NCBI GenBank assembly: GCA_963730935.1
Contig: CAVSTP010000003.1
Coordinates: 1 to 64,000 of the forward strand
DNA: 64,000 nucleotides
Source of the DNA: an uncultured Nitrospiraceae bacterium
GTDB lineage: Bacteria > Nitrospirota > Nitrospiria > Nitrospirales > Nitrospiraceae
Direction: 5' to 3'
Position numbers and translations under genes: made by a program. The first letter of the stretch is position 1. Each line of letters starts with the position of its first letter. Below the pieces are notes generated by a model that was given only the letters and a program-made list of their open reading frames with translations, had not been told where the DNA came from and searched no databases. Shown here one piece after another: positions 12,364 through 45,024 of this stretch.

Positions 12364-12403
12364 AGCAAACTAACAAACCGCAGGTCTGGTTTGTCAGAAT
12401 GCT
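12364..12403 (+). repeat. degenerate att-like core (AAACCGCAGGTC) inside an inverted repeat; left part shared with 31902-31923
   Basis: CAGCAAACTAACAAACCGCAGGTC vs CAGCGAACTAACAAACCGCAAGT at 31902. Also folds as ACAAACC-8nt-GGTTTGT. Confidence 0.5.
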
Positions 12404-12407
12404 GGTG

Positions 12408-13217
12408 TCAGCCATCGCTGTCTAGATATGCCCCTATGCCGTACCGCTCAAACAAGCCAGTCAGCAGGGCCAGTGAGTCACTCAAGATCATTAGGCCAAC
12501 AACAACGAGAAACATCCCGCTGACGATGGAAACCACTCCCATATATGCGCGGACTCGCCTGAATTGAACGAGAAAGCGGTCCACACTCATCGCTGCCGCA
12601 AACAATGGCATTCCCAAGCCGAGGGAATAAAACGCCAGTAAGGTCACACCGTCTGCTAGCGTGTCGGTCGTGCTTGCATATAAAAGCATGGTCCCGAGCA
12701 CCGGACCGACACAAGGAGTCCAACCCGTGGCAAAGGCTGCGCCGACTAGCAATGAGCCAGCATAGCCTGCCGGACGGGTTCGCAAGTGAACACGCTTCTC
12801 CGTCATAAGCAGTCTAAGTTTCAGTAGCCCCATGAGATACAGTCCGAACAGAATAATGAAGGTCCCGCCGACTTTCCGAATGAGGTCTTGATAGTCGGTG
12901 AGCATCCGACCGATCAAGCTGGCCGAGGCCCCGAAGGCGATGAACACGAGCGAGAACCCCGCGATGAAGAGAAGGGCATTCGCAATGATCGTTTTGCGCA
13001 CCCCGTGCCACTCATCAGAATCGACCAGTTGGTCTAATGATAGACTAGTGATGTATATGAGATAGGAAGGGACCAACGGCAACACGCAAGGTGAGACGAA
13101 AGAAAGGAAGCCCGCGAAGAAGGCAGCCATAAGAGACGTCTGTGAAAAACATTCGAGCATGATCACCCACGCAGCGGCAGGAGAGGGCAGTTGCCCTCTC
13201 CCTGCTGCTGTCATCAT
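12408..13217 (-). CDS. ccdA: cytochrome c biogenesis CcdA / DsbD transmembrane protein
   Basis: 'GFLSFVSPCVLPLVPSY' and 'GWTPCVGPVLG'; multiple TM helices; start may be 13160. Confidence 0.9.
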   Translation of the reverse strand: MMTAAGRGQLPSPAAAWVIMLECFSQTSLMAAFFAGFLSFVSPCVLPLVPSYLIYITSLSLDQLVDSDEWHGVRKTIIANALLFIAGFSLVFIAFGASASLIGRMLTDYQDLIRKVGGTFIILFGLYLMGLLKLRLLMTEKRVHLRTRPAGYAGSLLVGAAFATGWTPCVGPVLGTMLLYASTTDTLADGVTLLAFYSLGLGMPLFAAAMSVDRFLVQFRRVRAYMGVVSIVSGMFLVVVGLMILSDSLALLTGLFERYGIGAYLDSDG

Positions 13218-13714
13218 CCTTTCAGAGTGGACAGAAACTCACGAAATTGAAGGTTCTGGAGGACGCCTCCTCCACGATGGACGAGCGCGACGCTTCCCTG
13301 TGCATCCAACAACACGTACGTCGGTGTCGCGTTGACCTTGAAGGCCTGCGCCATCCAACGGTCTTCGTCATACGCGCTCGGAAAGGGGAATGTCCCGGCT
13401 CGCTCTTTCACGAACCGTTCGACATTCGTTCTCGTGTCGGCGAATCCGATCGAGAGGATACCCAGCTGCACCGGCTTGTCGCGCCGGTAGAATTCGCTCA
13501 AGAGAGGCAAATCTCGCTGACAGACCTTGCACCAGGGTGCCCAGAAGACCAGCAATGTTGGTCGACCCTTCAGAGATTCTTTGCTGTAGGTCTCGCCTCC
13601 GAACGTAACCAATTCGAACGACGGCGCTGTCGAACCGGCAGGTTCCGCCTTTAGCTCTGCCGGGCCGGGCAGCGCGATGAGGCACACGAGAATGCTTGCA
13701 CTGAACCAACGCAT
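13214..13714 (-). CDS. TlpA-like periplasmic thioredoxin
   Basis: Signal peptide, 'FWAPWCKVC', cis-Pro motif 'ATPT'. Confidence 0.88.
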   Translation of the reverse strand: MRWFSASILVCLIALPGPAELKAEPAGSTAPSFELVTFGGETYSKESLKGRPTLLVFWAPWCKVCQRDLPLLSEFYRRDKPVQLGILSIGFADTRTNVERFVKERAGTFPFPSAYDEDRWMAQAFKVNATPTYVLLDAQGSVALVHRGGGVLQNLQFREFLSTLKG

Positions 13715-13729
13715 TGACGTCCTCCCTCC

Positions 13730-14200
13730 TTAGGGCTTGATGTACAAATAGCCTTCCTTCTGCAGATCAGCGATGCGTTTCACGGCCACCGGATGCAAAG
13801 TGGCAACAAATCCCTTCGCCAGATTTTCGATCGTCTTGCCGTAAGCTTTCATGGACACCTGGCACATCTCCGCCTTGACGCCTTTCTCGATAATTTGGTC
13901 GAACCGCTTCGTCATCTCCGGATCCATCCTGTCCTTCTCGAATAGTTCGAGCGCCGGTCCGTGCACAACAAGCTCGATATCGATCTTGTCCGGCCCACCT
14001 TCTGCGTCGATGTGCTTGTTGATGAGCGCAAGGGCGTATTTCGCCACATCCGGATCCTTCCCATCGACGTGGTACAAAACCTTGACTTTCCCCTGTCCTT
14101 CCGCCGCCTGAACCTGATCCCGGCTCACAGGCAAAGCCAATATGGCGAGGGCAGTCAGCAGAACCAATAGCATGTGAATGCGTAATGATAACCCAATCAT
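13730..14200 (-). CDS. secreted DsrE family protein
   Basis: RBS GGAGGA, signal peptide, 'IELVVHGPAL', 'EMCQVSM', 'LQKEGYLYIKP'. Confidence 0.8.
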   Translation of the reverse strand: MIGLSLRIHMLLVLLTALAILALPVSRDQVQAAEGQGKVKVLYHVDGKDPDVAKYALALINKHIDAEGGPDKIDIELVVHGPALELFEKDRMDPEMTKRFDQIIEKGVKAEMCQVSMKAYGKTIENLAKGFVATLHPVAVKRIADLQKEGYLYIKP

Positions 14201-14340
14201 GGCATCCTCCTTGGTGTGATGAACGTGCAGACGCATAAACTCCATGCGCACATCGTACGGGTTGTCGAGGAGAGCCGGTAGGGGAGATCGCACTAAACAA
14301 GAGAGCAATAGTTCCCCTGTAGTGATAGGGGAGGTTGCCC

Positions 14341-15003
14341 CTAGTGTTTTGAATGCTGTTGGGTGAAATAGACAGCCGCTTGCGCGCGGCGAGAGACTTG
14401 AAGCTTCTGGAAGATATTCTCGAGGTAGTGTCCGACTGTTTTGTCGCTCAAGTTCAAAGATACGGCGATTTCTTTGTTGGTTTTCCCTTCCGCGACCAGT
14501 GCCAGGACACGTTCCTCCTGAGGAGACAAGGGCTCACGCTTCTCTTGCGTTGCCTGAGCCGAGAGAGATTTCACTTTGGCGAGCACACGCTGTGTGACTG
14601 CCGGGTCCAGGATCGATTGTCCTGATGACACTGCCTTAACCGCGTCGATCAACTGGTCGCTACTCACTTCCTTCAGGAGAAATCCGTCGGCTCCAGCCAA
14701 AATGGTGGCGAGCACCGAGTCATCGTCAGCGAACGAGGTCAAGAAGAGTACCCTTGTGTCTGGGTTTGCGGTGCGAATCGCACGGCAAGCGTCGACTCCG
14801 CTCCCATCCGGAAGCCTGACATCCATTAGCACGACCCTTGGCTTCAGTCTCGAAGCATCCGCAACAGCAGTGGCCATGGTGCCGGCCTCACCGACGACCT
14901 GGAATCCTCCGGCTTCGGTGAACAACGTCCGCAGGCCGATGCGAAGGACTTCGTGATCGTCCACCAACAAGAGTCGGATGGGTTTCGTCTCAGCTCGGGG
15001 CAT
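14341..15003 (-). CDS. NarL/LuxR family response regulator
   Basis: REC 'VDDHEVLRIG' plus LuxR HTH 'LSPQEERVL...GKTNKEIA'. Confidence 0.92.
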   Translation of the reverse strand: MPRAETKPIRLLLVDDHEVLRIGLRTLFTEAGGFQVVGEAGTMATAVADASRLKPRVVLMDVRLPDGSGVDACRAIRTANPDTRVLFLTSFADDDSVLATILAGADGFLLKEVSSDQLIDAVKAVSSGQSILDPAVTQRVLAKVKSLSAQATQEKREPLSPQEERVLALVAEGKTNKEIAVSLNLSDKTVGHYLENIFQKLQVSRRAQAAVYFTQQHSKH

Positions 15004-16420
15004 CACTCTTCTCTCGGAGTAAGTCACAGACAATCTGTGTTCCACGACCTGGTTCCGACATGACTTCGAGACGGCCACCCAGCTTTCTGACACGTGTCTG
15101 CATATTGTTCAGTCCCTGTCCATGCCCCCGGACCGTCCTGGGATTGAACCCGACCCCATCGTCTTCCACTGTCAGACGGACGTATCCGTCGTGCACGTCA
15201 AGAGTGAGGGTGCCTGTACGGGCTGCGGAGTGCCGCAGACTATTGCTCATCGCTTCTCGCGCGATTGGAAGAAGTTGTTCCGCCTGTTCAGGGGTTAACC
15301 AGTCTGCAGCCACAGGATTGATTTCTAGACGAAAATAAACCTGTCGTGAATTGTTCATGTCATCGACCAGCGAGGCCAGCGCCGCTTCGAGTGATCGTCC
15401 CTTCAAGACCGCGGGCTCCAAACCTAGAATATATCCTCGCAACTCTCGAATGACTGCCTTGAGGCCAGCCACAGCCGTGCTCAACTGCGCGCCGACATCG
15501 ATCGGGTTGGTTGAAACGAGACGCTGGCATCGTTCGAGGTTAAGGCCGATCGCGAAGAGAGATTGGATGGTGCTATCGTGCAGATCCTGGGACATGCGTT
15601 CGCGCTCGTCTAGCGCCTGACGGAGCCGTCCCTCGCTTCGGGAGAGCGTCTCTTTGGCATGGAGGGTTTGTGAGAGAGACGCTTTTAAGTCGGCGATGAC
15701 CTGAAAATAGCTTCGAGTAATATATCCCAACGCAATCACGCTAGCCATAAGGCGTAAAGCATGCCAGAACCACCAGCGATTGTCCCATGGAATCGAGTAC
15801 ATGAATACCAACTCGGCCATACCGAAGAGGAGGGCAAGGCTCGCGAATAACGCATCCTCTAACCGGCCCGAGCGCCGGTAGTTCAACAAAAAGCGCCCCA
15901 TCGCCGCCAGAAAAAGCAGGCAGGCTAGGCTTTGTGGTGCCACGGCCGTTGGAGTAAATTCACCGTTCCGGACCATCTCAGGGATTTGTTCGGGAAAAAT
16001 TAGGAACCATGTACCGGCCAATAATGCGCCGGTCCCAATCAGCCACGGGAGCCAACGCGGTTCCGATTCACTGTTTGGGGCATGCGACCTCCACACCAGC
16101 ACAAACCCGATGCCTCCAGCCAAGCTAGCAAGGTTTCGGAACAGGACGAAGCCATTGCCTGGCGGTGCGATAGCATGAAACTCTTCCAGGAGCCCCATGC
16201 CTACAAACCCCGCGGCGAGTGCGCGGTGCTTCCCTGCTCGAGACGCGTCGGGTGTGTACAGTAAGACCATAGCCATCGCAATGCCCACGAGGCCTCCCAC
16301 CGCCTCTATCGTCGAATGGAGCGGCTCATGGTGCCAACGCCACTCGGGCCACAACGAATGCATGACGGTGCCGACCAGCAGCGCCCCAATGCTGAACCCT
16401 GTCAAAAGGACGTATAACAC
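14990..16420 (-). CDS. membrane-bound HisKA_3 sensor histidine kinase
   Basis: Multi-TM N-terminus, 'ERERMSQDLHD', 'EAMSNSLRHS', 'DDGVGF', 'GQGL'. Confidence 0.9.
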   Translation of the reverse strand: MLYVLLTGFSIGALLVGTVMHSLWPEWRWHHEPLHSTIEAVGGLVGIAMAMVLLYTPDASRAGKHRALAAGFVGMGLLEEFHAIAPPGNGFVLFRNLASLAGGIGFVLVWRSHAPNSESEPRWLPWLIGTGALLAGTWFLIFPEQIPEMVRNGEFTPTAVAPQSLACLLFLAAMGRFLLNYRRSGRLEDALFASLALLFGMAELVFMYSIPWDNRWWFWHALRLMASVIALGYITRSYFQVIADLKASLSQTLHAKETLSRSEGRLRQALDERERMSQDLHDSTIQSLFAIGLNLERCQRLVSTNPIDVGAQLSTAVAGLKAVIRELRGYILGLEPAVLKGRSLEAALASLVDDMNNSRQVYFRLEINPVAADWLTPEQAEQLLPIAREAMSNSLRHSAARTGTLTLDVHDGYVRLTVEDDGVGFNPRTVRGHGQGLNNMQTRVRKLGGRLEVMSEPGRGTQIVCDLLREKSDAPS

Positions 16421-16565
16421 CGACAGTCGCCTTCTCCCTTGATCTACCGTCTCATAATCCCGCTAGCTGTCATTCAGGACACAAGTTCCCACAAAAGATC
16501 AAGGACGGCGATATCTGATTGGCCATCACTACCGATGAAGGGGCCTACCGCTCATTATGACGTTC

Positions 16566-16612
16566 TGCTACCGCGCTGCTAGCAGGGCAGGACAAACCAG
16601 TCCTATCTGGCC
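16566..16612 (+). repeat. end block type B, partial copy (TGCTAC pair plus GGACAAACCAG)
   Basis: Aligns with 28343, 35740 and 40362 copies; followed by a TGTGCTAGA direct-repeat pair at about 16622-16641. Confidence 0.75.
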
Positions 16613-16770
16613 GTCCGACGCTGTGCTAGATTTGTGCTAGAAAATATTGCAAGCAGCCGCAATGGCCAGAATGAATAGAAACAGTAGAATCGCCAAAACA
16701 TCAATGCTGACGAGTTAAAACGGGGAAACCACTTGTATCACCGAGCGTTACAAAAATCTGCCCATCTCCA

Positions 16771-16815
16771 TTCGTAAACCGCAGGTCGCCCGTTCAATCC
16801 GGGTCGCCGGCTCCA
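16771..16815 (+). repeat. 3' half of tRNA-Thr(CGT), att-like copy
   Basis: TTCGTAA anticodon loop, ACCGC, AGGTC variable loop, T arm GCCCG-TTCAATC-CGGGT, CGCCGGC-T-CCA; no D arm or 5' acceptor strand upstream. Confidence 0.92.
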
Positions 16816-16956
16816 TACTTTCAAGCAGTTAAAGAACCCGCCATTTCAGGATAGGGCGCAGGTGTTAATACAGTGTTAGTTTGAAGGTAGGTGGTGGGCT
16901 TACTTGCCCGGTTTATGCAAACCGGGAGGCAGTGATCCCAACGTGAAACCGGCTCT

Positions 16957-17178
16957 CCTGGGGAGGGGTAGTGAACTACCTTCAGACGTCCAACATAGAT
17001 TGGCGTGGTGTTAATCCGGTGTTAGAAAGCCATACTAAAACAGACGAACGCAGCCCGGTAAGGGAGAACAGAGCAGAAAGGGTGGATCAGCGTTTCGGCA
17101 AGGGAGAGAAGGGGATTGCCTGGTTTTCTTTGACCTTGGGCAATCCCCCTATCACCGATTCGTAAACCGCAGGTCGCC
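16957..17178 (+). repeat. end block type A (~215 bp) ending in a truncated tRNA-Thr core (17159-17178)
   Basis: Highly similar direct repeat of 25471-25691; contains GGTGTTAATCCGGTGTTAG paired repeat. Confidence 0.9.
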
Positions 17179-17220
17179 TCTAGCTTCCATGTGCAATGAC
17201 TGACCGGTCATTGCACACCA
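17179..17220 (+). repeat. left-end block C with palindrome GTGCAATGAC-N6-GTCATTGCAC
   Basis: Follows the truncated core; a close copy follows the truncated core at 28489-28530. Confidence 0.8.
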
Positions 17221-17352
17221 GACGAGTCGTGGCCAGGCGAATACTATCTCGCGTCAAACCGTCCTGAGCACTTTGACCAGCTATGGTGTTTCGTAAACAC
17301 TCAGATGAGGAAATTGCTAGCATTCAAAATTGATGCTTGACTAAGAATCCTT

Positions 17353-17553
17353 TCAATCCAGGACGAATGTGACCTTCAGGTCCACTCGGTACACAATAAT
17401 CTTGCTATTCTCAATCACCACTTGCTGTTCCTTGACCCAGGCGCCTTTGATGTTGTGGATGGTCTTAGAAGCTCTGGCGATTCCACTCTGAACGGCATCC
17501 TCAAAGCTCTTTGGCGATTCACAGCTAATCTCTATAATCTTGGCGACGGACAT
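17353..17553 (-). CDS. dodecin family protein
   Basis: 'SVAKIIEI...SPKSFEDAVQSGIARASKT...YRVDLKVTF', 66 aa, RBS AGGAGG. Confidence 0.9.
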   Translation of the reverse strand: MSVAKIIEISCESPKSFEDAVQSGIARASKTIHNIKGAWVKEQQVVIENSKIIVYRVDLKVTFVLD

Positions 17554-18069
17554 AGCAATTCCTCCTTGTTATGAGCCCCTAATCTAAACGGAACATCTGT
17601 CTCCTCCTAAAGAATCGGCGTGCGCAATCTTACATAATTTTTCCGCCTTTGTCTGTGACCCGGAACAGCCGGACACGGGACTGAGAATTAGCTGTAAAAC
17701 TCTTGGGATTCTCCTTGGGTGCTCGACGAGATGTTCACTCAACTTGATCGCCGTTTGATTAATCTTCATTATTTATTAGGTCATCCGTGACCGGTTACTG
17801 GTTGGGGCTGCTCCGGGTTCTTGCTCGCAACTACAGCCCGTTTTCAGTCTGTTAGCAGGCGCGCCTTTACCGACCAATTGAGTATGCTGCAAAGTCTCGG
17901 GTGTCCCTGGCACTTTACCCCCCCCCTTGCGGATTATAGCGGGAGTGAAGTACGTGCCTGGAAATCGATGATGAGAGCGGCGTCGTGAAGATGGAACAAG
18001 ATATGGCTGTTGACAAGCCCGCGACGATGGGCGCGATGATAGCCAAACACCTAAACCAAGGACGCGACC

Positions 18070-18402
18070 ATGAGACAGTTATCCGCGTTCGTAGCGACGA
18101 CATTCTGCTTCATCCTGTTGCTGATGTTCCCGCTGACAAGCGAGGCTCAGACGTACTGCAATTGCATCAGCTCATCGGTCTACTGTGACGGCTACGATAA
18201 CAACCAGACGACGATCACGCCGCTCGGGGGCACTGGCGGGGTCATCACCCAGGATGACTACCGTGGCCACTCCAGCATGACACGTATAACGTCCTGGCCG
18301 CGCCCTCGCGCGGGGTTGAAGCCACATGATCCCCGTGCGTTCTATACGCTCGAAGGCAATCAGTATACTCTTCGGGCATCCCCATCGTTACCTCGACGTT
18401 GA
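18070..18402 (+). CDS. small secreted hypothetical protein, possibly decayed at the 3' end
   Basis: Signal peptide ending 'SEA', 'YCNC...VYC'. Confidence 0.45.
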   Translation: MRQLSAFVATTFCFILLLMFPLTSEAQTYCNCISSSVYCDGYDNNQTTITPLGGTGGVITQDDYRGHSSMTRITSWPRPRAGLKPHDPRAFYTLEGNQYTLRASPSLPRR

Positions 18403-18926
18403 CTGGCTTTTTATCGTTTCCCGGCACAATTTGAGCTAGTCGGGGATGTACATAGGGCGTAGCATCTTTGGCGATACGCGCATCCCAGATCAGTTTGATC
18501 CAGATGCCTTGGAATCCCGAGGTTTGCTTCTTTTTGAAAGCACAAAGCAGATATGGTCGTGAAGATATAGTCGACAGAGCTTCGACGACAAAACAACGAT
18601 ACGCCGCGATTCACGTTCGATCCAAGGTTATCGCCACCAAATCCCCCTTCTGCCTTTTTCGCTCCTTTGTAGTCCAGAGTCTGCGCGCTTACCTGGCGTG
18701 TCTTTTGAACTCGCAAAAAATTGATGCGCCAGACGGATGACTTCCCACCGGCTCGCTTTACCGGGTTTCTGGTTCGGTCGGATGTAAGAGCACATTTATC
18801 ACTGTTTGTGCAGGACTATCTTGAGTAAATGGAAACCCAAAACGCTAATGTAGTTCCTCCGCGCTGAGCGGCAAAGAGACTTTAAGCGATTACAAGCAGT
18901 TTCTACCAGATGGGAGCGCACAGCTA

Positions 18927-19772
18927 TCAATGCATGACCTCAAGTTGGATCAGCATATCTTCCATGAACAATCCTTTTTCCGACATGTTGAGGTCTGGTA
19001 ACAGTCGTGTTGTGAGATCAGCACTTCCCTCCAGATGGTCAAGTTGATATCCCATTTCTTTGTGGAAAACATTCAGTTCCTCTCTTTCCCCTCCCAATCT
19101 AAACAATCTCGGGGTTCGACCATCTCGCCACGTTTCATCGAAACCGCGAAGCTTGAAATCGTAGGCAATACGACTTTCCCTCGACAAATGCTTTCCGAGG
19201 AATCTCAAAACTTTTGTAAACGTTTCAACCTTGATATAAGGGGCGACGCCTTCCATGAATACCAATGCCCTTGGCATCTTATTATGAGCTAACCATGACT
19301 CGAAGTCCGGCCATGCTTCGTCATTTAAGTCTATCGACACATATGTGACATGGTCATTGTCCCAAAGTCGCTTTGACACATCCTGCTTGATCTCAATTGC
19401 TTTCGGTTGGTCACACTCTAAAACCTTAATGCCCTTTTGTTTCAAGGCCTGTTCGAATCGATATGCCCGTGTGTCAGTGCCGCATCCAATATTGACGATG
19501 TACTGCACATTCGACGTAATCGCATTCAGGAATACCGAATCGTAGTATCGGGTTCGCGCAAGGAGGTAGTAATAGAGGGGATCAGCTTGCAGAGTAGCAA
19601 CGCTGCTTTGACTCAGCCATTGGCAACGCCACCTTCTAAGAGGTGGTAGGAAGTGCCCAACTAGCCTATCTGGATTCAGAAGTTCGGTAGGTTCATGAAT
19701 AGATTGGATATACCGTCGTTCTGCCACCGCCAATGAATTGCTGAATGCTAGCCTCCGCATCTCGTCCTCCAC
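18927..19772 (-). CDS. class I SAM-dependent methyltransferase (leucine carboxyl methyltransferase-like)
   Basis: 'ARTRYYD', 'VNIGCGTDTRAYR', 'ECDQP', 'FMEGV'. Confidence 0.85.
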   Translation of the reverse strand: MEDEMRRLAFSNSLAVAERRYIQSIHEPTELLNPDRLVGHFLPPLRRWRCQWLSQSSVATLQADPLYYYLLARTRYYDSVFLNAITSNVQYIVNIGCGTDTRAYRFEQALKQKGIKVLECDQPKAIEIKQDVSKRLWDNDHVTYVSIDLNDEAWPDFESWLAHNKMPRALVFMEGVAPYIKVETFTKVLRFLGKHLSRESRIAYDFKLRGFDETWRDGRTPRLFRLGGEREELNVFHKEMGYQLDHLEGSADLTTRLLPDLNMSEKGLFMEDMLIQLEVMH

Positions 19773-19811
19773 TAATCGCGGGAACCAGTCTGAGATGAAA
19801 CCGGTAAAACG

Positions 19812-20000
19812 CTAGCCGCTCCTTTTATGTGTGGGCATAGCCTTATAATGCAGCTTCGCCCGTTCGGCGGCCGAATACGTCCGTACGTGATATTCTCGCT
19901 CTAACTCTTCTTTCGCCGCAGCCTTACCTTTACGTGCCTCTATAAGCAGTTGGCGGCGATATTCCTGCTCTGCGTCATCTACACCCTTGAATGCTTCCAC
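19812..20000 (-). CDS. small hypothetical protein, paralog of 30368-30568
   Basis: GTG start with AGGAGG RBS; 'EAFKGVDDAEQEYRRQLLIEARKGKAAAKEELEREYHVR'. Confidence 0.7.
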   Translation of the reverse strand: MEAFKGVDDAEQEYRRQLLIEARKGKAAAKEELEREYHVRTYSAAERAKLHYKAMPTHKRSG

Positions 20001-20246
20001 AACACGCCTCCTGGTTAGCGCAACAGCTGACACAGTGTGCTGGCTGGATGCTGTCCAAAGTGTAGAAGCGGCAGTGCGATCACGACAGACCAGAAGGAGG
20101 TACTTCGGAAGAGGGGGCCATCCATGGAACTGAGGTCTGTCGGCAGGCCAGTCAGGCAAAGGTAGGTTCATGGCTGCCGCAAATCAGAAAAGCGCAAAAA
20201 AAGCATTGTCAATAACCTGGACATGACGCGACTAAGCAGCATTCCG
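19855..20246 (-). repeat. ~390-bp inverted duplicate of 30120-30513
   Basis: Reverse complement aligns along its length with scattered substitutions. Confidence 0.93.
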
Positions 20247-34020: not shown

Positions 34021-34028
34021 CAGGCCGT

Positions 34029-36102: not shown

Positions 36103-36155
36103 TTGGTACCATGGCAGCCGGGCTGATCGGGTTGAAAGTAGAAGGATCGTCCCTC

Positions 36156-37323: not shown

Positions 37324-38817
37324 CTATCTATTGACTCCGACGCTGCTCCAGGTGACGATGCTGCCTACAAGAATTCCTTTTACCCAGACCGGCCGCCCTA
37401 TCACCACCTTCTCAAAAAATGCCATGCGGCCAATCGCCCCATAAAGTCCGACAAATTCATTGTCCGGTATCCCGGACGTATCAATGCTGGTATTGGCCAG
37501 CAGGACCTGGGGATCAGCCGCCAATTGTAGAGGTGCTTGCATGACAATGCTGGTGGAGGGAATGGTTCGTTCCAGTTCTGTGGCCACCACGTGCTGCCCG
37601 TGAAGCAGTCTCGCGTGAACTTTCACGTGGTCGCCAATCCGGATGTCCTCAAAGCGACTAGGAGTGCCTTCGTCTTCCGTCACCGTTCGAGCGTCCCGTG
37701 CGATGGGAAGTCCCGGGAGACCGGCTAGGGTGAGAGTGCCGGATTGAAGGTCGATCGATTCGACGTTCGATTCCGCTACGACGTTCTCTTTGAAGGCCAC
37801 CTCGTGGGCTTCCAACACGCCTTGTACCAGCGCCCCATGAATCAACAGGTGGGCGCCAAGCGTGAGCTCGCTCACCGTACCTCCTTCAAATCTAGTGTCG
37901 GCTGAGACTTCTATCGGATGGTTACTAATCGCAAACCTGCCAGGATGCGTGACCTGAGTGATAAAGCCTTCGATTTTTGTGTCGGGGCTGTGCTCCACAG
38001 TCAGGCCTAATCGCTTCACCCTGGTAGCCGTAAGTCTGGCGCCATACGGCACTTCACTACGCGGTTGCCACTCGTCTCCTCGCACGTGGGCGAGGCGACC
38101 GTTCCAATCCGTCGTGTCGCCAGTCGCGATGTCACTGATGTCTGCAGATGAGTACTCCACCATGAGTTGGCCGATCTCGAACCGTTTATCCCGCGCATCG
38201 TGGTTCTTGATGATGCCCTGAACCTCATAGTGCGGCTTGCCGGTGCGCTTCATAATCAACGTAGCCAAAATGTGGCCATCGCTCGTGACCAAACCGCTTA
38301 CCTCGATGACATCTAGTCCTGGCGCGAGGTTACGAATAGATCGGCCTGGGATGTTGGCATCGATCACGGTTTTTGGATTCAGCGCGATAAATTGTCCAAG
38401 AACGATTAGGCTTGAGCCATCCTGGGCGACATACTGTACGACCCCCTCCACGGTTTCTTCGAAGGTAATTGTGTCGGCGACACGGGTCACTACAGTCTGG
38501 TCTGACGACTGCGCCGTTCCCTTGACGAGTACAACCATACCAAGCTTCAGGCTGTTCTCCGTGCTGCAGGGCTCACTATCAATGCAATACACAGCATTGG
38601 AATTGTCATATTCCGTCCCAGAGATAGACACGCTGCTCAGCTTGGTCACCGGCCCTGAGGCGACGCTGGAGACGCGGGAGGCGGATCCGGTCCCGCCAAC
38701 GCCACCGCCTGCCTGAGGGCTAGGACCGCACGAGGCTAGAACCAAGAAGGACAACGCCAGGGCAATCGCCATGTGGGCTGAATGGGATGAAAATCGTTTG
38801 AAGTAACGAAGATACAT
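37324..38817 (-). CDS. lipoprotein with repeated DUF5666-like domains
   Basis: Lipobox 'LASC', 'GGGVGGTG', repeated small beta domains ('LKLGMVVLVKG'). Confidence 0.75.
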   Translation of the reverse strand: MYLRYFKRFSSHSAHMAIALALSFLVLASCGPSPQAGGGVGGTGSASRVSSVASGPVTKLSSVSISGTEYDNSNAVYCIDSEPCSTENSLKLGMVVLVKGTAQSSDQTVVTRVADTITFEETVEGVVQYVAQDGSSLIVLGQFIALNPKTVIDANIPGRSIRNLAPGLDVIEVSGLVTSDGHILATLIMKRTGKPHYEVQGIIKNHDARDKRFEIGQLMVEYSSADISDIATGDTTDWNGRLAHVRGDEWQPRSEVPYGARLTATRVKRLGLTVEHSPDTKIEGFITQVTHPGRFAISNHPIEVSADTRFEGGTVSELTLGAHLLIHGALVQGVLEAHEVAFKENVVAESNVESIDLQSGTLTLAGLPGLPIARDARTVTEDEGTPSRFEDIRIGDHVKVHARLLHGQHVVATELERTIPSTSIVMQAPLQLAADPQVLLANTSIDTSGIPDNEFVGLYGAIGRMAFFEKVVIGRPVWVKGILVGSIVTWSSVGVNR

Positions 38818-39654
38818 CTATTTGTCCTGATCGAACCGTTCTTCAAAATGGTAGACACCCAGGCCCACCCGGACCCGACCCTTGCCTTTGACAGTCGGAT
38901 TGACATCGCGGTCGCGATGAGACAGCCATCGATCCAGCGCCTCAAGCATTTCTTGAGCACGCGCCTGGGCGACCGCCTGGAATGCCTGGGCCGATTCCAG
39001 CGGGACGTTGTCGTACATCACTTTTCGTTGCATTCTGGGAGAGGACGAGTTTCCGTACACGTTGTGGTCGATTGTCGCGATGAGGTCGGCCGTGTCCTGT
39101 CCGAGTATGGCCAACTTTTGGTCCGTGCCCTTCTGAGGGATGTTCCCTCTCACCGCTAGGCCGATCCGACCATCCTTTAACTGCGTAACAGCTCCCACTC
39201 GCACGAGTTCATCGAGCATGGCTCGGACAGGGATGTCCCCGCTATAGCGTTTGACCAGCGCGCTGAAGGACTGTCGTTTCCCAACCATGCGGAGCGGAAG
39301 CGGATGGCCATTGCCATCTCCGAAATCCGGATCGCGGAGCCATCCGGTAAGCACGCGAGCCGCGCGATTGTATTCGTCTTCATACTGATTCTCTCTCTGA
39401 ACAGGCATGTCGAGGAGCGCTTGTACTTCCTTGCGTGTTAGTCCAGTGAGGATGGCAATGCGCGAAATCGTAGCCTTCTTCTCGCCGATGCCGAATTCAT
39501 CACGCGCCACCGCCACATACGTTTCCTTCGCTATTTCATAGAACGACCTGGCGGCCATCCCATTGCGAAGCAGGATGCGGATCAGCGGCGGAAGTAACTT
39601 GCGGATTGCCGTCTGCAGCCCCTTGGCGCCCATTGTGCGGGAAGTTATTCCCAC
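38818..39654 (-). CDS. DUF6502 family protein
   Basis: 'PLIRILLRNG', 'SRIAILTGLTRKEV', 'ARVLTGWLRDPDF', 'SFSALVKRYSGDIP'. Confidence 0.8.
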   Translation of the reverse strand: MGITSRTMGAKGLQTAIRKLLPPLIRILLRNGMAARSFYEIAKETYVAVARDEFGIGEKKATISRIAILTGLTRKEVQALLDMPVQRENQYEDEYNRAARVLTGWLRDPDFGDGNGHPLPLRMVGKRQSFSALVKRYSGDIPVRAMLDELVRVGAVTQLKDGRIGLAVRGNIPQKGTDQKLAILGQDTADLIATIDHNVYGNSSSPRMQRKVMYDNVPLESAQAFQAVAQARAQEMLEALDRWLSHRDRDVNPTVKGKGRVRVGLGVYHFEERFDQDK

Positions 39655-39790
39655 ACGTACTAGATGTCAAGGGATACTTACCGGATGTCAAGTATGAGAG
39701 GGTGGCCCAGGCCGGAGGGGGGATTGAACCTTAGTATGGTTTCCTTTAGTATTGGGAAAAGTTTCCCACAGCAACGGTGGGAGAGGATGC

Positions 39791-40366
39791 GTGGGCTTTA
39801 AGACTCAAAAAATTACTGTGCCCCTGGAGCAATCCGTCGGCGAAGTACTTCGGCGTTTGCGACACAGAGAGCGGGTTTCTGTTCGGACACTGGCCAGTAA
39901 GTGTGGATGCTCACCCAGTTTCATTTCGCAAGTTGAATTGAATCAGGCATCGCCCTCGCTCGCTTCGTTAGAGCGCATTGCTGCGGGAATTGGTGTGACA
40001 TTAGGCGATTTCTTTCATGCTGCCGAGCACTCGGGACCGAGATTGGTTAGATCATCTCAGCGCCCTATGCTTCAGAATGGTTGGTCCCGTTCACAAATTG
40101 AATCGCTAGGAAATCCTGGCATCGCAAGCAGATTAGAGCCCCTATTGGTGACAATGCGCTGCGAAGGAACCAGCAGCTCGCGGCTCCAGACAAGTAACAG
40201 CGAGCAGTTTGCAATGGTCATTTCCGGTTCCGTGATGCTTGAACTAGCGGACGGCACTCACGTGCTTCGACGAGGTGATGCAATAACAATCCCGGCGGGT
40301 ACGCCACACCGATGGGAAAACAAAGGAACCAAGGACGCACAATTACTTAAGATTACGCCGCGCTAG
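39791..40366 (+). CDS. XRE HTH + cupin transcriptional regulator
   Basis: 'SVRTLASKCGCSPSFISQVE...PSL' plus cupin 'GDAITIPAGTPHRWEN'. Confidence 0.88.
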   Translation: MGFKTQKITVPLEQSVGEVLRRLRHRERVSVRTLASKCGCSPSFISQVELNQASPSLASLERIAAGIGVTLGDFFHAAEHSGPRLVRSSQRPMLQNGWSRSQIESLGNPGIASRLEPLLVTMRCEGTSSSRLQTSNSEQFAMVISGSVMLELADGTHVLRRGDAITIPAGTPHRWENKGTKDAQLLKITPR

Positions 40367-40518
40367 CTGCTGCTCCCAGGACAAGACAAACCAGCCAGAT
40401 CTGGCTCCGTGTCAGTACTATCCTCGTGTGTGGTTTCTTGTGGGTTAGTTGTCTGAGGTTGGACTATCTGAAATTCATAAACCGCAGGTCGCCCGTTCAA
40501 TCCGGGTCGCCGGCTCCA
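40362..40518 (+). repeat. end block type B + tRNA-Thr 3' half (40474-40518, loop TTCATAA)
   Basis: Block aligns with the 28343 copy; tRNA half identical to 16771 except G>A in the anticodon. Confidence 0.9.
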
Positions 40519-40766
40519 GTCTTTTCAAGTGTTTCGAGCTGAAACCGCTACTCTCCCACGTGACCTGCCAGTGCCTGGTTGCAGATAGTTGCGGATTGGC
40601 CCTCCATTTTCGGATTTTCCACAGATCGAGTCTGTCCACGGCTTGCCGGTTTGATCCTGGAATCCAGGTGGAAGTGTCGAAGCGAGTGAGGGGGTAGCGA
40701 GCCCAGCCGTTGCCGCTTGTGGAGTAGAGTTGTTGCGCCATACTGCTACACTTTTCCACCCCCGCC

Positions 40767-41738
40767 TTGCGATTTCCTCAGTCCCCTTCTTACAATACGC
40801 CTCCCTACGAGGCTCCCTTGCCCTTCTTGATTCATTTCTATCGTCGCGCTACCGGAAAGATCACAAGCATTATACGCGAATGTTTTCACCGATTGGCGTT
40901 CAAGCTGTACCACATGAGGGCTCCCTCTCTACCGTTTGAAACCGTCCTGTATGTAGGGCATCTTTTCAAGTTCTTAGCGAATCACAAGAGACTTCCTATA
41001 AGACCAAACACATTATTTAACGACTTTCTGTTCAAGCTGTCATCCAGCCCTGAATTTGGGAGCCCCTTACGAACATTCATTACCGATAAAGAATTCGGAA
41101 AACTCTATATAGAAAAGAAGCTTGGCGCCGGCACCACTCCAGCCACTCTCTGTATTTTGCGGACGCCTGAGCAAGTTGACACTTACCTCCCGCCCACATA
41201 TCCGATCGTGATCAAACCCACACATAGCTTCGGCAGGATTGCCTTGGTGTTTGCGGAATCTGACTCTCATAAGGCAAAAACACAAATTAAAGATTGGCTT
41301 ATTCACGACTATTTCCTGGAATCCCTGGAGAGGAACTACGCGAAACTTGAAAAGAAAATCATCGTTGAACAATATATCGACGACACTTTCGCAATTGAAG
41401 GTTCAGTTCATTGCCTGAGGGGAGAACCGAGAATTATCAGCTTGATCGATCGAAAGACTAAAGAGCGCCAATCATTCGATGCAAACAAATCTCCATTAGG
41501 AGTGAGTTTGCAATATCCGTTGAAAGAATTCGAGCCAAAAGACTGGGGTTTCTTAAACAGCCTTTTGAAAAGCTCCAGAATTCTCTCAGGAGAATTCAGT
41601 TACATCAGAATAGACTTTTACACCGATGGTGAACGGGTTCTTTTTGGCGAATTGACTAACTTGCCCGCAGGCGGGATGGGAAAGTTTTTCCCCGCTGGCG
41701 GGGAAAAGAAATTTTCAAAAGTGTTTTTTAATTCTTAG
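40767..41738 (+). CDS. ATP-grasp TupA-like protein
   Basis: 'TDK', 'IKPTHSFG', 'KIIVEQYI', 'YIRIDFY', 'FGELT..P.GG'; AT-rich; start uncertain. Confidence 0.8.
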   Translation: MRFPQSPSYNTPPYEAPLPFLIHFYRRATGKITSIIRECFHRLAFKLYHMRAPSLPFETVLYVGHLFKFLANHKRLPIRPNTLFNDFLFKLSSSPEFGSPLRTFITDKEFGKLYIEKKLGAGTTPATLCILRTPEQVDTYLPPTYPIVIKPTHSFGRIALVFAESDSHKAKTQIKDWLIHDYFLESLERNYAKLEKKIIVEQYIDDTFAIEGSVHCLRGEPRIISLIDRKTKERQSFDANKSPLGVSLQYPLKEFEPKDWGFLNSLLKSSRILSGEFSYIRIDFYTDGERVLFGELTNLPAGGMGKFFPAGGEKKFSKVFFNS

Positions 41739-42477
41739 CAAAAACAAAATCTAACTCCCAATTGACTGTTAAAGTCTCAGTCTCCTTATTCAGTCCGAGA
41801 ATGTCCTCCACTTGAGACAATAAATTCTGCTTCGAAATGTTCGATAAGCCAAAAAACTTGCTCATCCAATTGAAGAGAACGTCTTCGTTCGCAAATACCC
41901 AAGGGCAAACTATCGTTTCTCGCTTGATGGTTGTGTATCCGGCAAGAGCGGCTACGCTGACAAAGTCTTCTTTTAAATAGTTTCCGGTGTGACCGGTTCC
42001 CGTATAATTGCCGACGAATTGATCGAGAAAGCGACTTGTGCGAGAGTTCTCTTTTACCTCGGACATGAGCAACCGCCCATGTGTTTTCAGTACTCTCCTT
42101 GTTGCGACAAGAAATTGTAGTTGTTCTGCATTGTCAAGATGATGAATGCCTGCAATGGTCAGAACTATATCAAAATACGCACTGGGAATATTTTTGAGAT
42201 TGTAGTCTGTCTTTACGATATTCCAGTTTTTCAAAGATTCTGGAACAACGAAATCAGCCAGCGTTATCTCCATGTTCGGGACAGATTGAATTTGCGTAAG
42301 CAAATTGCCTTCGAATGGTACGTTTAAAACTGTTTGGGTGCCCTGGAGATTCATCACATCGAATAAAGGCTTAATTTCCGTTGCGCGCGGGGAATTATCG
42401 TCCGCATACGCGTGAAGGAGCGCGCTGCCTTTACCAAAGCGATCTATGTAACTCGTGGGCATGCTAGGTTCTCCCAC
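41728..42477 (-). CDS. class I SAM-methyltransferase-like protein
   Basis: 'FDIVLTIAGIHHL', 'RRVLKTHGRL'; AT-rich. Confidence 0.65.
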   Translation of the reverse strand: MGEPSMPTSYIDRFGKGSALLHAYADDNSPRATEIKPLFDVMNLQGTQTVLNVPFEGNLLTQIQSVPNMEITLADFVVPESLKNWNIVKTDYNLKNIPSAYFDIVLTIAGIHHLDNAEQLQFLVATRRVLKTHGRLLMSEVKENSRTSRFLDQFVGNYTGTGHTGNYLKEDFVSVAALAGYTTIKRETIVCPWVFANEDVLFNWMSKFFGLSNISKQNLLSQVEDILGLNKETETLTVNWELDFVFAKN

Positions 42478-42834
42478 TGGCCTCTGGCTCTGAAGCTGTC
42501 ACATCCCAAAAACTCGCCCAAGGACAGGCGTTACCGTGTTGGTAGCCATATTGGATCCAGACCCATATTCGAGACAACACCCTAGAAGTGGGGTAGTGAG
42601 AGCACGCTCCTATGACCAATCGGCTTCGGCAAAGCCGTCGCAGATACCTTATCGCATTGTTTCGCCGCCAATAGTGCCCTACAGAAGAGGGGATAGCTGA
42701 ACCTGCGGGTTGACGTTGCAAATCGAGAGGATGTCCATACGGCTGCCAGGTGAGGGAAGATGCTGTATGCCGGTGCTCTGTCCGAGCGAGGCTGGCACGG
42801 ATACCATGTCTGAAAACTTATAAGAGGAGGAATC

Positions 42835-43260
42835 CATGCATCGGAGTTGCGATACATGGCACTATCGACGCTGGTCGGCACACTTCTCATCGGCACGACT
42901 GTCGCTAGCGCGGCAGGCGAAACAGAGGATCTTCCTACAGGACATTCGAAGTTCACCAGTGTGGTCACGAAGAAAGCGGGTGCGCTCGTGGTGACGACAC
43001 CGAACGGTGCGACGCATCAGCTCAACGAGAACATGGCGCGACGTCACGGGCAGAAGCCGTTCAAGGCGGGGGATGAAGTGGTCGTGGTGTTGGATGAGAA
43101 CAACTACATCGTCGATATGCATCTCAAAGGGAAGCAAGGAACACATCAACTGGTGACCGGCAAACTCATCCACGTCGGCATGCTAAAAAGGAGATCAAGC
43201 TCCAAACCGATGATGGCGAGAAAGATGTCCACCGAGCCGGCACCGGCAGTGGGAAGCACT
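42835..43260 (+). pseudogene. secreted beta-domain protein remnant, read through into the next gene in the ORF track
   Basis: Signal peptide and 'KAGDEVVVVLDENNYIVD'; sequence loses protein-like character after about 43190. Confidence 0.5.
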
Positions 43261-43293
43261 AATCAGAGGTCCGGTACAGAGCGAGAGGTTAAC

Positions 43294-43935
43294 ATGAAGA
43301 TTGCATTGATCGGAGCCACCGGGTTTGTCGGCTCGGCGATTTTGAAAGAAGCCTTGCATCGCGGCCATGAGGTCACGGCCATCGTCCGGCATCCGGAGAA
43401 GGTACAACCTTATCAGAAGCTGCGCCCTGTGAAAGGGGATGTGTATAACGCGGATGACGTGGCCCGGTTGATCACGGGCCATGATGCCGTTATCAGTGCC
43501 TTCAATCCTGGCTGGAGCAACACGGACATTTACAATCTTCAAGTCAAGGGTACCCAGGCCATCATCAGCGGGGTGAAGAAGGCCGGAATCACACGATTGT
43601 TGTTCGTGGGAGGCGCCGGCAGTCTGGAAGTGAAGCTGGGCGTTCAGGCCTTGGACCTGCCGGGATTTCCCGTCGAGTATAAACAAGGGGCGCTCGCAAC
43701 GCGGGAGGCTCTGAACATGCTGCGCAAAGAGTCCAGCCTGGATTGGTCTTTCCTCTCTCCTTCAGCCGACCTTTTCCCCGGCCAGCGCACTGGGAATTTC
43801 CGGCTCGGTACGGACCAACTGTTGAAAGATGAGAACGGCCAAAGCCGCATCTCGACACAGGACTATGCCATGGCCATGATCGATGAAGTCGAGCGGCCCG
43901 CGCATGTCCGTCAACGTTTTACCGTGGGGTATTGA
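43294..43935 (+). CDS. NAD(P)H-binding oxidoreductase (flavin reductase-like)
   Basis: Own RBS GAGAGG; 'MKIALIGATGFVG', 'VGGAGSL', 'RQRFTVGY'. Confidence 0.9.
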   Translation: MKIALIGATGFVGSAILKEALHRGHEVTAIVRHPEKVQPYQKLRPVKGDVYNADDVARLITGHDAVISAFNPGWSNTDIYNLQVKGTQAIISGVKKAGITRLLFVGGAGSLEVKLGVQALDLPGFPVEYKQGALATREALNMLRKESSLDWSFLSPSADLFPGQRTGNFRLGTDQLLKDENGQSRISTQDYAMAMIDEVERPAHVRQRFTVGY

Positions 43936-44062
43936 TCGATTCCTGCAGGGCAGGACACAGTCGATAGGCGTGAGATACCAAAAGGAGGGAGGAACGAGAG
44001 ATCGAATTGAGCTGGGTTATTGTGATGGAGAAGTTGACGTTCAAGAGGCTAAATAACAAGCG

Positions 44063-44347
44063 CTAAGACTTTGGGCTCTCCTCCTCTGGTCCAGACGGAC
44101 CCCAGAGATCGCCTAAGCCTAGGGATTCCCATAAGTCTTTTTCAGACTGAGGAGGGGCGCCCTCAAGAAAGCTGGCTAAGATCTTCGATTTGTAGGCTGC
44201 GGCGTGGGGCCTGCACTTCTTTACCGCATCTGCATATTCCTGTTTCGATATACGCAAGCGTTGAAGGAGAACCCCCTGAGCCAATAAGAGAGCGTGATGA
44301 ACCGAAAGCGTATGGGCCAGCCTCTCAATGAGCTTGCGATTTGTCAT
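44063..44347 (-). CDS. hypothetical protein
   Basis: 94-aa ORF with AGGAGG RBS. Confidence 0.5.
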   Translation of the reverse strand: MTNRKLIERLAHTLSVHHALLLAQGVLLQRLRISKQEYADAVKKCRPHAAAYKSKILASFLEGAPPQSEKDLWESLGLGDLWGPSGPEEESPKS

Positions 44348-44564
44348 GAGTGAACCTCCTTCGGAAATGATGTTCCCAAATCCCCATGAATCAGACAGAA
44401 ATTATAGGTCCAAAATTACAGGGCAACAGCGGCCGAACCAAACTAGCCAATTCAATACCTGCGTTCTCCGCTTGCACCTTAATCCTTACGGGGCTTAGAA
44501 TACACTATCTGCGAATAAGTGCGTAAATGGCTATTGTTGTAGAGATGATAAGGAGTCGAGGATT

Positions 44565-44912
44565 ATGGCTTTACTAATTACAGCTGAATGTATCAACTGC
44601 GGAGCCTGCCTGCCAGAATGCCCGAATGAGGCAATCTTCGAAAAGCGCAGTGACGCGGAGGAAAAAGGAAACCATGTGGGCGACGGCCAGGGCCCGGGAG
44701 ACGATATTTACGTCATTACGCATGACCGGTGCACAGAGTGTGTCGGACATTTTGACGAGCCTCAATGTACAGCGGTTTGCCCGGTCGATAATTGTTGTAT
44801 CTCTGATCCAGCCTATCCGGAGCCGACCGATGTTTTGCTAGAGAAAGCAAAGAAGCTCAATCCTGACAAGACCATCGACCCGGCAAAAGTTTGGAGCGGT
44901 GTACGGAACTAA
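44565..44912 (+). CDS. YfhL-type 2x[4Fe-4S] ferredoxin
   Basis: 'CINCGACLPECP', 'CTECVGHFDEPQCTAVCP'. Confidence 0.92.
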   Translation: MALLITAECINCGACLPECPNEAIFEKRSDAEEKGNHVGDGQGPGDDIYVITHDRCTECVGHFDEPQCTAVCPVDNCCISDPAYPEPTDVLLEKAKKLNPDKTIDPAKVWSGVRN

Positions 44913-44988
44913 TCGGTTCACCTTTGAAGAACTGCGAAACATCTTAACACGCCTACCTAGGGGTCTAATTCGTTAAGCTGTTGAAAGG

Positions 44989-45024
44989 AAACCGCAGCTC
45001 GTCCTTCTATCCGCTCGCTGGCTC
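44989..45024 (+). repeat. highly degenerate tRNA-Thr 3' half
   Basis: AAACCGCAGcTCGtCC-TTCtATCCG-cTCGCtGGCTC aligns to AAACCGCAGGTCGCCCGTTCAATCCGGGTCGCCGGCTC. Confidence 0.65.

Follow-up and report, generated by a model that had tools for sequence, protein, structure and literature searches.

The DNA analysed here, hereafter the window, covers contig C3 (GenBank CAVSTP010000003.1) from its start to 64 kb and belongs to the Nitrospira genome G000 (assembly GCA_963730935.1; six contigs, C1 onwards, 4.05 Mb). Downstream of genes for a histidine kinase, a sigma-54 regulator and nxrAB, the window contains, between 12.4 and 45 kb, ten copies of a short tRNA-derived repeat, all co-oriented on the + strand. 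These sites bound at least ten modules of 0.4-5 kb, whose Pfam-assigned cargo is unrelated from interval to interval. The original prediction, made from the sequence alone, had described an integron-like array of integrase-less cassettes with unrelated cargo. All ten of the sites that it listed exist, all on the + strand, and its site spacings of approximately 4.4, 0.39, 3.4, 5.1, 2.8, 3.4, 4.2, 4.4 and 4.5 kb are correct. We consider it somewhat better than an even chance that the repeats are attachment (att) sites bounding modules that are assembled and exchanged by integrases supplied in trans.

Four of the ten sites are full 45-mers, located at 16771-16815 and 20562-20606 (both 45/45), 40474-40518 (44/45) and 25679-25723 (42/45); none was expected by chance, as judged from 100 shuffles. 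The remaining six are core-only or degenerate. At 17159, 28469 and 36084, repeat finding and direct inspection showed a match of ~18-20 nt with divergence after it. At 12375 an exact 12-mer, AAACCGCAGGTC, lies behind a different upstream arm, the site at 31914 reads AAACCGCAAGTA, and that at 44989-45031 is a decayed tRNA-Thr 3' half (nhmmer E = 0.027). One caveat concerns the claim that no confidently called gene spans a repeat: read from its first GTG, an open reading frame (ORF) at 36048-37190 would include the 36084 core. Since the Pfam match of this ORF begins at residue 96, its real start probably lies downstream. The G+C content of the array is 52.7%, compared with 57.5% for the genome. 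Twenty soil or sediment sequencing runs contained, all as contigs, at most half of the sampled words of positions 16000-25999.

The window repeats derive from tRNA-Thr(CGT). The sole gene for this tRNA that ARAGORN found in G000 is C2:6021-6096(-), and the window 45-mer is its 3' 45 nt, from the first base of the anticodon loop onwards. Identity begins at TTCGTAA at sites 16771, 17159, 20562 and 25679, and at a mutated form of this loop at 28469, 36084 and 40474. The four 45-mers bear out the proposed tRNA-Thr(CGT) origin with identity starting at the anticodon loop. The description of the sites as tRNA 3'-half repeats is accurate for these four of the ten; the rest are short cores behind conserved arms.

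Most sites are preceded by such an arm, which is conserved, non-coding and unstructured. The type-1 arm is ~125 nt long, begins CTGCTACCACGCTGCTACCAGGACAGGAC, contains two direct CTGCTACCA repeats and runs into cGGAAtTTCGTAAACCGCAGGTC. It is found upstream of 28469, 40474 and 36084 (here with a gap of ~240 nt) and, in part, of 16771, and a profile built from 13 copies gave 35 matches in the genome, four of them inside the window. The type-2 arm is ~90 nt long, with GGTAGC..GGTAGCA inside it and GCGAACTAAtAAACCGCAGGTC at its end. Sites 12375 and 31914 lie behind it, and nhmmer matched it 17 times in the genome at E < 0.01, 11 of these matches being training copies. A third arm of ~220 nt is common to 17159 and 25679, and its end resembles the attR of the closed relative G009. 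At least three conserved elements also occur downstream, behind some of the cores. One of these, on the P' side, is CTCTAGCTTCC..GTGCAATGACTGACCGGTCATTGCAC, a palindrome with a 10-bp stem that follows 17178 (17179-17220) and 28488 (28489-28530) and recurs at C2:880862, C2:631193(-), C2:318787(-) and C1:176470. The upstream arms, the conserved downstream sequence and the genome-wide extent of the family had all gone unnoticed in the original prediction.

The arms do not behave as genes or as structured RNA. A coding arm was ruled out by indels among the copies that are not multiples of three. The fold of arm plus core was no better than that of shuffled sequences (z = -0.44), the alifold consensus structure of 16 arm copies had an energy of -5.5 kcal/mol with 1/20 pairs covarying, and Rfam gave no match for the window at the gathering threshold or for 28200-28600 at E <= 1; an RNA element was ruled out on these negative results. 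What is conserved in the arm is blocks of sequence, including the two direct CTGCTACCA repeats. Taken together, the lack of structure and of Rfam matches, the frame-breaking indels and the conserved blocks argue that the arm acts as DNA. No match to 28330-28540 was found in PLSDB or INPHARED (distant mode). At C1:176336-177686, a type-1 arm that lacks a core passes directly into the P' palindrome; next come a dodecin gene, which shares 96% identity with that of the window, and then an integrase ORF of 277 aa.

The core that follows a type-1 arm comes in three variants, each matching a different tRNA. Variant TTCGTAAACCGCAGGTC matches tRNA-Thr(CGT), TTCCTAAACCGCGGGTC, with two linked differences from it, matches tRNA-Arg(CCT) at C3:456595, and TTTGTAAACCACAGGTT matches tRNA-Thr(TGT). 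Identity begins at the anticodon loop in the tRNA-Thr(TGT) copies as well, and in many copies the core extends through the entire tRNA 3' end to CCA. Of 80 arm copies in other genomes, 39 have the loop TTCGT, seven TTCCT and five TTTGT; five have other loops, and in 24 no core was found. A core that follows its tRNA is what att sites of tRNA-targeting integrases show, and this argues that the repeats are att sites. Anticodon-centred attP sites account for 2083 of 3919 islands in the part of the Islander report drawn on here (Hudson et al. 2015, PMC4383910). Some G000 cores are trailed by remnants of a T-arm variant, GCTGGTTCGATTCCAGTC, as found in the tRNA-Thr(CGT) of another genome, G005, and this sequence evidence suggests transfer between species.

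No recombinase was found in the array. ARAGORN detected no tRNA in the window, Pfam assigned no integrase or transposase family to its 83 + 21 ORFs, and neither the 13 genome matches to PF00589 nor the four to the serine recombinase family PF00239 lie on contig C3, in agreement with the original claim that the window lacks integrase, transposase and tRNA. Among the findings that would speak against it, the original prediction had named integrase fragments. A tblastn search with all G000 integrases and with the Rep and Xis proteins of the tRNA-Thr element described below revealed no int, rep or xis remnants in the window (best E = 0.1). None of 101 ORFs in three other G000 stretches that carry such sites (C4:523-542 kb, C3:852-887 kb and C4:1755-1806 kb) belonged to an integrase or transposase family. 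In other genomes, a tyrosine-recombinase match lies within 4 kb of only five of 80 arm loci, and downstream of the arm in two. The integron integrase model TIGR02249 (IntI) reached at best 86 bits over the whole genome against a cut-off of 265, so that no match exceeded the cut-off, and no attI-integrase platform was seen at either end of the array.

An intact tRNA-Thr(CGT) with an adjacent tyrosine integrase had been predicted, and both were found on contig C2, 6 kb from its start. The adjoining trio encodes a tyrosine integrase of 383 aa (C2:4864-6015) that has an N-terminal integrase domain, a Rep_trans protein and an excisionase-like HTH_17 protein (C2:3267-3575), and judged by these genes it looks like a small integrative mobilizable element. 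Rep_trans occurs in G000 solely at this element. The 17-mer GTGCTAGATTTGTGCTA is present twice in 4.05 Mb, 47 nt after tRNA-Thr(CGT) (before int) and 148 nt before the 16771 45-mer, which suggests that the C2 tRNA site and the 16771 site are an attL/attR pair. The tRNA points off contig C2 and the array, 12 kb from the C3 start, points inward, so the two contig ends are compatible in orientation. Against a join, the C2 and C3 starts share no overlap, and no bridging contig was present in the closest relatives, G010, G015, G006, G047 and G048. These five lack the first 3.9 kb of the window except for paralogous sigma-54 domains, and the ORFs at the C2 and C3 ends are not complementary. The syntenic block that makes up the first 9 kb of the window, 315 kb from tRNA-Thr in the closed genome G001, likewise weighs against a join.

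The array opens at 12286-12386 (+) with a type-2 arm (GGTAGC..GTAGC) that ends in the core AAACCGCAGGTC (nhmmer E = 2.2e-18; a training-set copy). Module 1 (12387-16815) encodes DsbD_TM, thioredoxin/AhpC-TSA and DsrE-like proteins, a LuxR-type response regulator and a MASE3 histidine kinase (Pfam), and ends in a partial type-1 arm (16559-16612), the 17-mer GTGCTAGATTTGTGCTA (16623-16639) and the perfect 45-mer at 16771-16815. It is followed by a 363-bp mini-module (16816-17178, +) that consists of little more than an arm (16960-17178, 88-92% identical to 25475-25698) and the core at 17159-17178. Module 3 (17179-20606) carries a dodecin gene, small ORFs and an LCM-type methyltransferase gene up to the perfect 45-mer at 20562-20606. 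In module 4 (20607-25723), a cluster of small ORFs and a stand-alone receiver-domain protein (21525-22010) precede a second arm of the 17159 type (25475-25698) and the 45-mer with three mismatches at 25679-25723. Repeats of 69 nt (three copies, at 20760, 22101 and 25404) and of 50 nt (two copies, at 23480 and 24602) also occur in this module. Gly-zipper, Ysc84-like and bestrophin-like proteins make up module 5 (25724-28488), which ends in a type-1 arm and core (28340-28488).

Module 6 (28489-31925) starts with the P' palindrome (28489-28530), encodes a receiver-domain protein (28680-29093, -) and small ORFs, and ends at 31890-31925 in a type-2 arm remnant with a degenerate core (E = 0.0026). 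An inverted duplicate with 93% identity (19855-20246 and 30120-30513) links it to module 3. An ArnT/PMT-like glycosyltransferase, a GT2 protein and an Slp lipoprotein are encoded in module 7 (31926-36103), which has an inner breakpoint at ~35031-35042 with the degenerate core-like sequence AAATCGCGGGTC and whose right end comprises a type-1 arm (35734-35846) and the core at 36084-36103, separated by an insertion of ~240 nt. Module 8 (36104-40518) encodes an SMP-30/gluconolactonase-like protein, DUF5666 and DUF6502 proteins and an HTH-cupin regulator, and ends in a type-1 arm and the 45-mer with one mismatch (40355-40518). The interval 40519-45031, one module or more (9), contains genes for a TupA-like ATP-grasp protein, a methyltransferase and an NAD-binding protein, then a ferredoxin cassette (43987-45031) bounded on the right by the decayed tRNA-Thr 3' half at 44989-45031. 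A probable last module or modules (45032-46967) encode a 240-aa protein without a Pfam family and a TPR protein. The 240-aa ORF (45067-45789) starts exactly at the module breakpoint, and its DNA identity is 88-93% in most genus genomes, compared with 66-80% for most neighbouring genes. Stand-alone receiver-domain proteins are conspicuously frequent in stretches with such sites, with two in the window array (21525-22010 and 28680-29093), four in C2:872-892 kb, five in C4:523-542 kb and others elsewhere (loci L002 and L052-L057).

The original prediction had called for a comparison of cassette order between genomes. The order of the window modules is kept in no relative; pieces of the array lie on other contigs or far apart. 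Homology to the relatives changes at or close to the sites. In G048, homology covering the bestrophin gene and its arm (91%) extends precisely as far as the final core base, 28485, where G048 has a core of the Arg(CCT) type and a different continuation. G047 homology runs up to position 45031, where the decayed 3' half ends, and that of G003 and G010 begins at 45032-45037. The homology of G015 and G006 begins at ~46967-46985, and in G015 an arm and tRNA-Thr 3' half lie 55 nt upstream. The segments 32032-34996 and 35026-35781 are on different contigs in G047, with a degenerate core-like 12-mer at the joint, and relatives carry 40741-42701 and 43987-45032 separately.

Single-gene units between pairs of sites occur in other genomes. 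At least two arms lie within 8 kb of each other in 25 of 77 arm loci of other genomes, and adjacent arm pairs there are co-oriented in 28 of 29 cases, with a spacing of 275-2288 nt. At nine loci, a type-2 arm is found 0.6-1.5 kb upstream of a type-1 arm; the cargo between them, which includes a ferredoxin, a Sel1-repeat protein, proteins without a family and others, was similar in one of 36 comparisons. The ferredoxin gene of the window (44565-44912) is 78-80% identical to the ferredoxin found between type-2 and type-1 sites (loci L082 and L090), and the gene recurs in G006, where it follows a type-1 arm, and in G047, where a decayed 3' half comes after it.

The original prediction had anchored the array to tRNA-Thr as a single platform. 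This did not hold, since the sites form clusters across the genome and their cores come from three tRNAs, tRNA-Arg(CCT) and tRNA-Thr(TGT) in addition to tRNA-Thr(CGT). Co-oriented clusters in G000 include C3:854-880 kb, C4:986-1002 kb, C4:1757-1801 kb and C2:880-892 kb, among others. At C4:524966-541328, an intact tRNA-Thr(TGT) (C4:541254-541328) is followed by two perfect 45-nt copies that delimit islands of 9.1 and 7.2 kb. The second copy stands behind a type-1-like arm, and the nearest PF00589 match is >190 kb away. The cargo of these two islands includes five stand-alone receiver-domain proteins, an AAA_22/Tll0287-like protein and an HD-domain protein. Within the C4:1757-1801 kb cluster, positions 1774400-1776300 (loci L055/L056) encode an ArsR-type regulator, an SBF/Acr3-type transporter and an ArsC-like low-molecular-weight phosphatase, and the C3:852-872 kb cluster encodes a glycine-betaine ABC system and an EgtD-like methyltransferase.

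Within the genus, 14 of the 24 genomes other than G000 contain the type-1 arm, whereas none of 16 genomes of other genera in the order does. Relatives have 0-8 matches each, compared with 35 in G000. A 19-mer from the arm occurs in at least 114 stretches of species-representative genomes. Nearly all of the 80 stretches listed are titled Nitrospira, Nitrospiraceae or Nitrospirota, the exceptions among those listed being one Paenibacillus, two contigs of Pyrinomonadaceae metagenome-assembled genomes (MAGs), one 'delta proteobacterium' MAG and one untitled entry. In the closed genome G001, the sole type-1 arm immediately precedes a 45-mer located 43 kb downstream of the intact tRNA-Thr(CGT); this arm is a textbook attR. 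A second 45-mer is located 9 kb beyond the first. One G001 integrase gene, IntA (429 aa), follows the tRNA, and another follows the first 45-mer and is 61% identical to the C2 integrase of G000. An island of the same kind, 10.6 kb long, is present in G009.

We propose that lambda-type tyrosine integrases directed at the anticodon loop of tRNA-Thr(CGT) would use the repeats as att sites. Each repeat site would consist of an upstream P-arm of protein-binding repeats, for which the CTGCTACCA and GTGCTAGA repeats are candidate integrase-binding sequences, a tRNA core of 12-20 nt or 45 nt and sometimes a P' element. The array may have grown by accretion, in which one module after another enters an existing att site by site-specific recombination, and integrases supplied in trans would exchange modules at these sites between arrays and between genomes. 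Modules would move without an integrase of their own, and one candidate supplier for their mobilisation in trans is the int-rep-xis element at the intact tRNA-Thr(CGT) on C2. We advance more tentatively the possibility of a genus-wide cassette system distinct from integrons, with units from single genes to ~5 kb that each carry an attP-like site of ~150-200 bp. Tyrosine integrases acting in trans would insert, excise and reshuffle these units at tRNA genes and at earlier sites, so that each chromosome would come to have several arrays containing a large part of its accessory genome.

Several observations weigh against assembly and exchange in trans. The arms are 73-88% identical to one another, and their divergence among G000 copies equals that to copies in other species. 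The loops at many window sites are mutated (TTCAT, TTTAT, CTCAT), so these sites may no longer be active, and with such loops and arms much of the array may be a fossil. Short-core sites could not integrate into a tRNA gene without destroying it. The first 9 kb of the window (histidine kinase, sigma-54 regulator and nxrAB) are syntenic with closed G001, where they lie 315 kb from tRNA-Thr. The window modules hold 2-6 genes on both strands with their own regulators (Pfam), unlike integron cassettes, and an end of homology at a repeat is also expected from homologous recombination between dispersed repeats. The IntA family of G001, which is found beside type-1 arms elsewhere, has no G000 match at E <= 1e-20; its only representative there is a 237-aa fragment (C2:881043-881753), and no close IntA is present in the arm-rich genomes G006, G015, G010 and G013. 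IntA family matches occur in 11 of 32 other genomes, with IntA-like matches at loci L061 and L112. Judged by this co-occurrence, G001 IntA cannot account for the arms as their cognate integrase.

The most serious rival, which we judge unlikely, is that the array is what is left of ordinary tandem islands. Integrase-bearing islands would have entered at tRNA-Thr(CGT) and then lost integrase and backbone by deletion, with rearrangements between att copies scattering the pieces, so that nothing is mobile now or ever was without an integrase of its own. The window has at least three kinds of arm (type 1, type 2 and the 17159/25679 type), as would be expected if different elements had visited, several cores are loop-mutated, the arms are old by their identity, broken integrases adjoin some G000 sites (C2:881043, C4:982891 and C1:176856), and decay of integrated elements to cis-mobilizable elements (CIMEs) is an accepted route in the part of the review by Guedon et al. 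(2017, PMC5704250) that we draw on. Decay of this kind is harder to reconcile with the integrase results given above, in which none of at least ten window modules retains a remnant of int, rep or xis, none of the 101 ORFs of the other clusters is an integrase and only two of 80 loci have an integrase match within 4 kb downstream of the arm, and with modules of 0.3-2.3 kb that hold a single unrelated gene between intact arm pairs in many species. The absence of backbone remnants neither proves nor excludes decay from an integrative and conjugative element (ICE) or an integrative and mobilizable element (IME).

We consider it improbable that the family is a dispersed repeat, resembling a miniature inverted-repeat transposable element or a repetitive extragenic palindrome or copied by homologous recombination, whose end merely resembles a tRNA anticodon arm, with arrays arising from recombination between repeats. 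The copy number in one genome, 35 type-1 and ~17 type-2 matches against 0-8 type-1 matches in relatives, would suit such a repeat, as would the copy without a core at C1:176336, and homology that stops at the repeat end is expected for any repeat. Yet the core tracks three tRNAs with linked substitutions, often through the 3' end to CCA, the sole arm of closed G001 is a textbook attR, no transposase lies nearby, and a recent burst is contradicted by G000 copies that are as divergent from each other as from those of other species. More improbable again are modules in which host XerC/XerD act on the core as a mimic of dif. G000 encodes two Xer-like recombinases (C4:1647142-1648152 and C2:504092-505036), and TTTCGTAAAC is loosely like Xer-binding arms. 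In the alignments, however, the sequence past GGTC is not conserved, so that a second conserved Xer arm is missing where the spacing would require one; the cores mirror tRNAs and not a single dif, and long arms are typical of lambda-type sites and not of dif. On these alignments the Xer/dif reading was ruled out. Least probable of all, the arm and its tRNA-like end would form a functional RNA, for instance a small RNA or a 3' element resembling a tRNA. The sites are intergenic and co-oriented and end in a tRNA 3' half, as that would predict, but the single-sequence fold, the 16-copy consensus and Rfam all speak against it.

Among known systems, integrons offer a functional analogy only, in that co-oriented recombination sites separate unrelated cargo that lacks a recombinase. 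An integron was ruled out by the lack of IntI, of attC-like structure and of PF00589 on C3, and the likeness drawn in the original prediction goes no further than this. Integron attC sites are imperfect palindromes conserved in structure, whereas the Nitrospira sites are unstructured and conserved in sequence blocks; integron cassettes are mostly single promoterless co-oriented ORFs, whereas the window modules are multi-gene and of mixed orientation. IMEX elements and the pdif modules of Acinetobacter are small, recombinase-less units bounded by short sites and moved by recombinases encoded elsewhere. The Nitrospira cores are tRNA-derived with long arms, and no two-armed 28-bp site like dif is present.

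If, as we favour, integrases in trans assembled the modules, the array is best read as a product of accretion, a known idea, and the closest described parallel would be the Dehalococcoides ssrA islands. As described in the part of McMurdie et al. (2011, PMC3146451) used here, these islands lie in tandem downstream of one small-RNA gene, are bounded by direct repeats of its 3' end, have extra conserved sequence beside the repeats and carry adaptive, strain-specific cargo; 15 of them lack the integration module and were proposed to be cis-mobilizable and joined by accretion. The Dehalococcoides system uses a serine integrase and the T-loop of transfer-messenger RNA, whereas the Nitrospira anatomy points to tyrosine integrases and a tRNA anticodon loop. 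In that account, 16 islands keep a six-gene integration module, and none of the at least ten Nitrospira modules does; all the repeats there are <100 kb from ssrA, whereas the Nitrospira sites form genome-wide clusters with three tRNA cores and bound units down to single genes.

CIMEs and the site-specific accretion of ICEs and IMEs (Pavlovic 2004 and Bellanger 2011, as cited in the part of Guedon et al. 2017, PMC5704250, used here) give arrays that are bounded by att sites and lack integration and transfer genes, as the window modules are and do. There, CIMEs are ICEs or IMEs that have decayed, and a site usually has one or two of them, whereas Nitrospira has at least ten in a row and ~50 sites per genome; in Nitrospira no remnants of decay were seen, and single genes unrelated to one another lie between the same pairs of sites throughout the genus. 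The tandem tDNA (tRNA gene) islands of Islander share an identity block that starts at the anticodon loop, the mark of an anticodon-centred crossover. They combine an intact tDNA with displaced 3' fragments that are directly oriented; in G000 the fragments are co-oriented on C3, and the intact gene lies on C2 in a compatible orientation. As far as that source goes (PMC4383910), a tandem array is accepted only if every member has its own integrase, and 125 tandems of two or more and four of three or more are recorded among 3919 islands. The window modules have no integrase of their own, and integrase-less arrays would thus be filtered out by design. The Nitrospira array departs from these known cases in five ways, namely the type of recombinase and its target sublocation, the absence of any integrase from the array, how many sites there are and how widely they are spread, the use of three tRNA cores with a single kind of arm, and single-gene units between conserved pairs of sites.

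Nitrospira are key nitrite oxidisers and comammox bacteria, and to our knowledge their acquisition of accessory genes is poorly described. We found no paper describing such arrays in Nitrospira, judging from listings and the openings of abstracts alone. In the portion of the IntegronFinder 2.0 report that we draw on, only two clusters of attC sites lacking integron-integrases (CALIN elements) are given for the phylum. The array looks like a little-described way of shuffling accessory genes. If modules move in trans, it would be a second, tRNA-derived solution to what integrons do in storing and shuffling genes that lack a recombinase, and island finders that need one integrase per island would systematically miss such arrays. 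The cargo bears on niche adaptation, with redox, envelope and two-component functions here and arsenic-resistance-type and osmolyte genes elsewhere in the genome. Even if the sites are fossils, ~50 att-like repeats per genome are likely to drive rearrangement and assembly breaks.

Further observations concern the start of the window and the end of its contig. The nxrAB genes at window 4018-8837 have a second copy in the genome: over 4855 nt, the nxrA/nxrB segment 3984-8837 (with products of 429 aa for nxrB and 1148 aa for nxrA) shares 97.6% identity with C2:474304-479157. The histidine kinase/sigma-54 pair upstream of nxrAB is absent from G010, G015, G006, G047 and G048 and present in the more distant G001, G009 and G013. 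The sensor kinase in this position appears to be split, with an N-terminal membrane/sensor piece that stops at 292 (2-292) and a GAF-HATPase part that starts at 510 (510-2066). Near the end of C3, two perfect tRNA-Met(CAT) 3' halves are found at C3:876799 and C3:879250 (-). The tRNA-Met(CAT) gene, C4:14485-14560 (-), lies 14.5 kb from the C4 start and adjoins the gene for a 602-aa serine recombinase, and the placement of halves and gene suggests that the C3 end abuts the C4 start.

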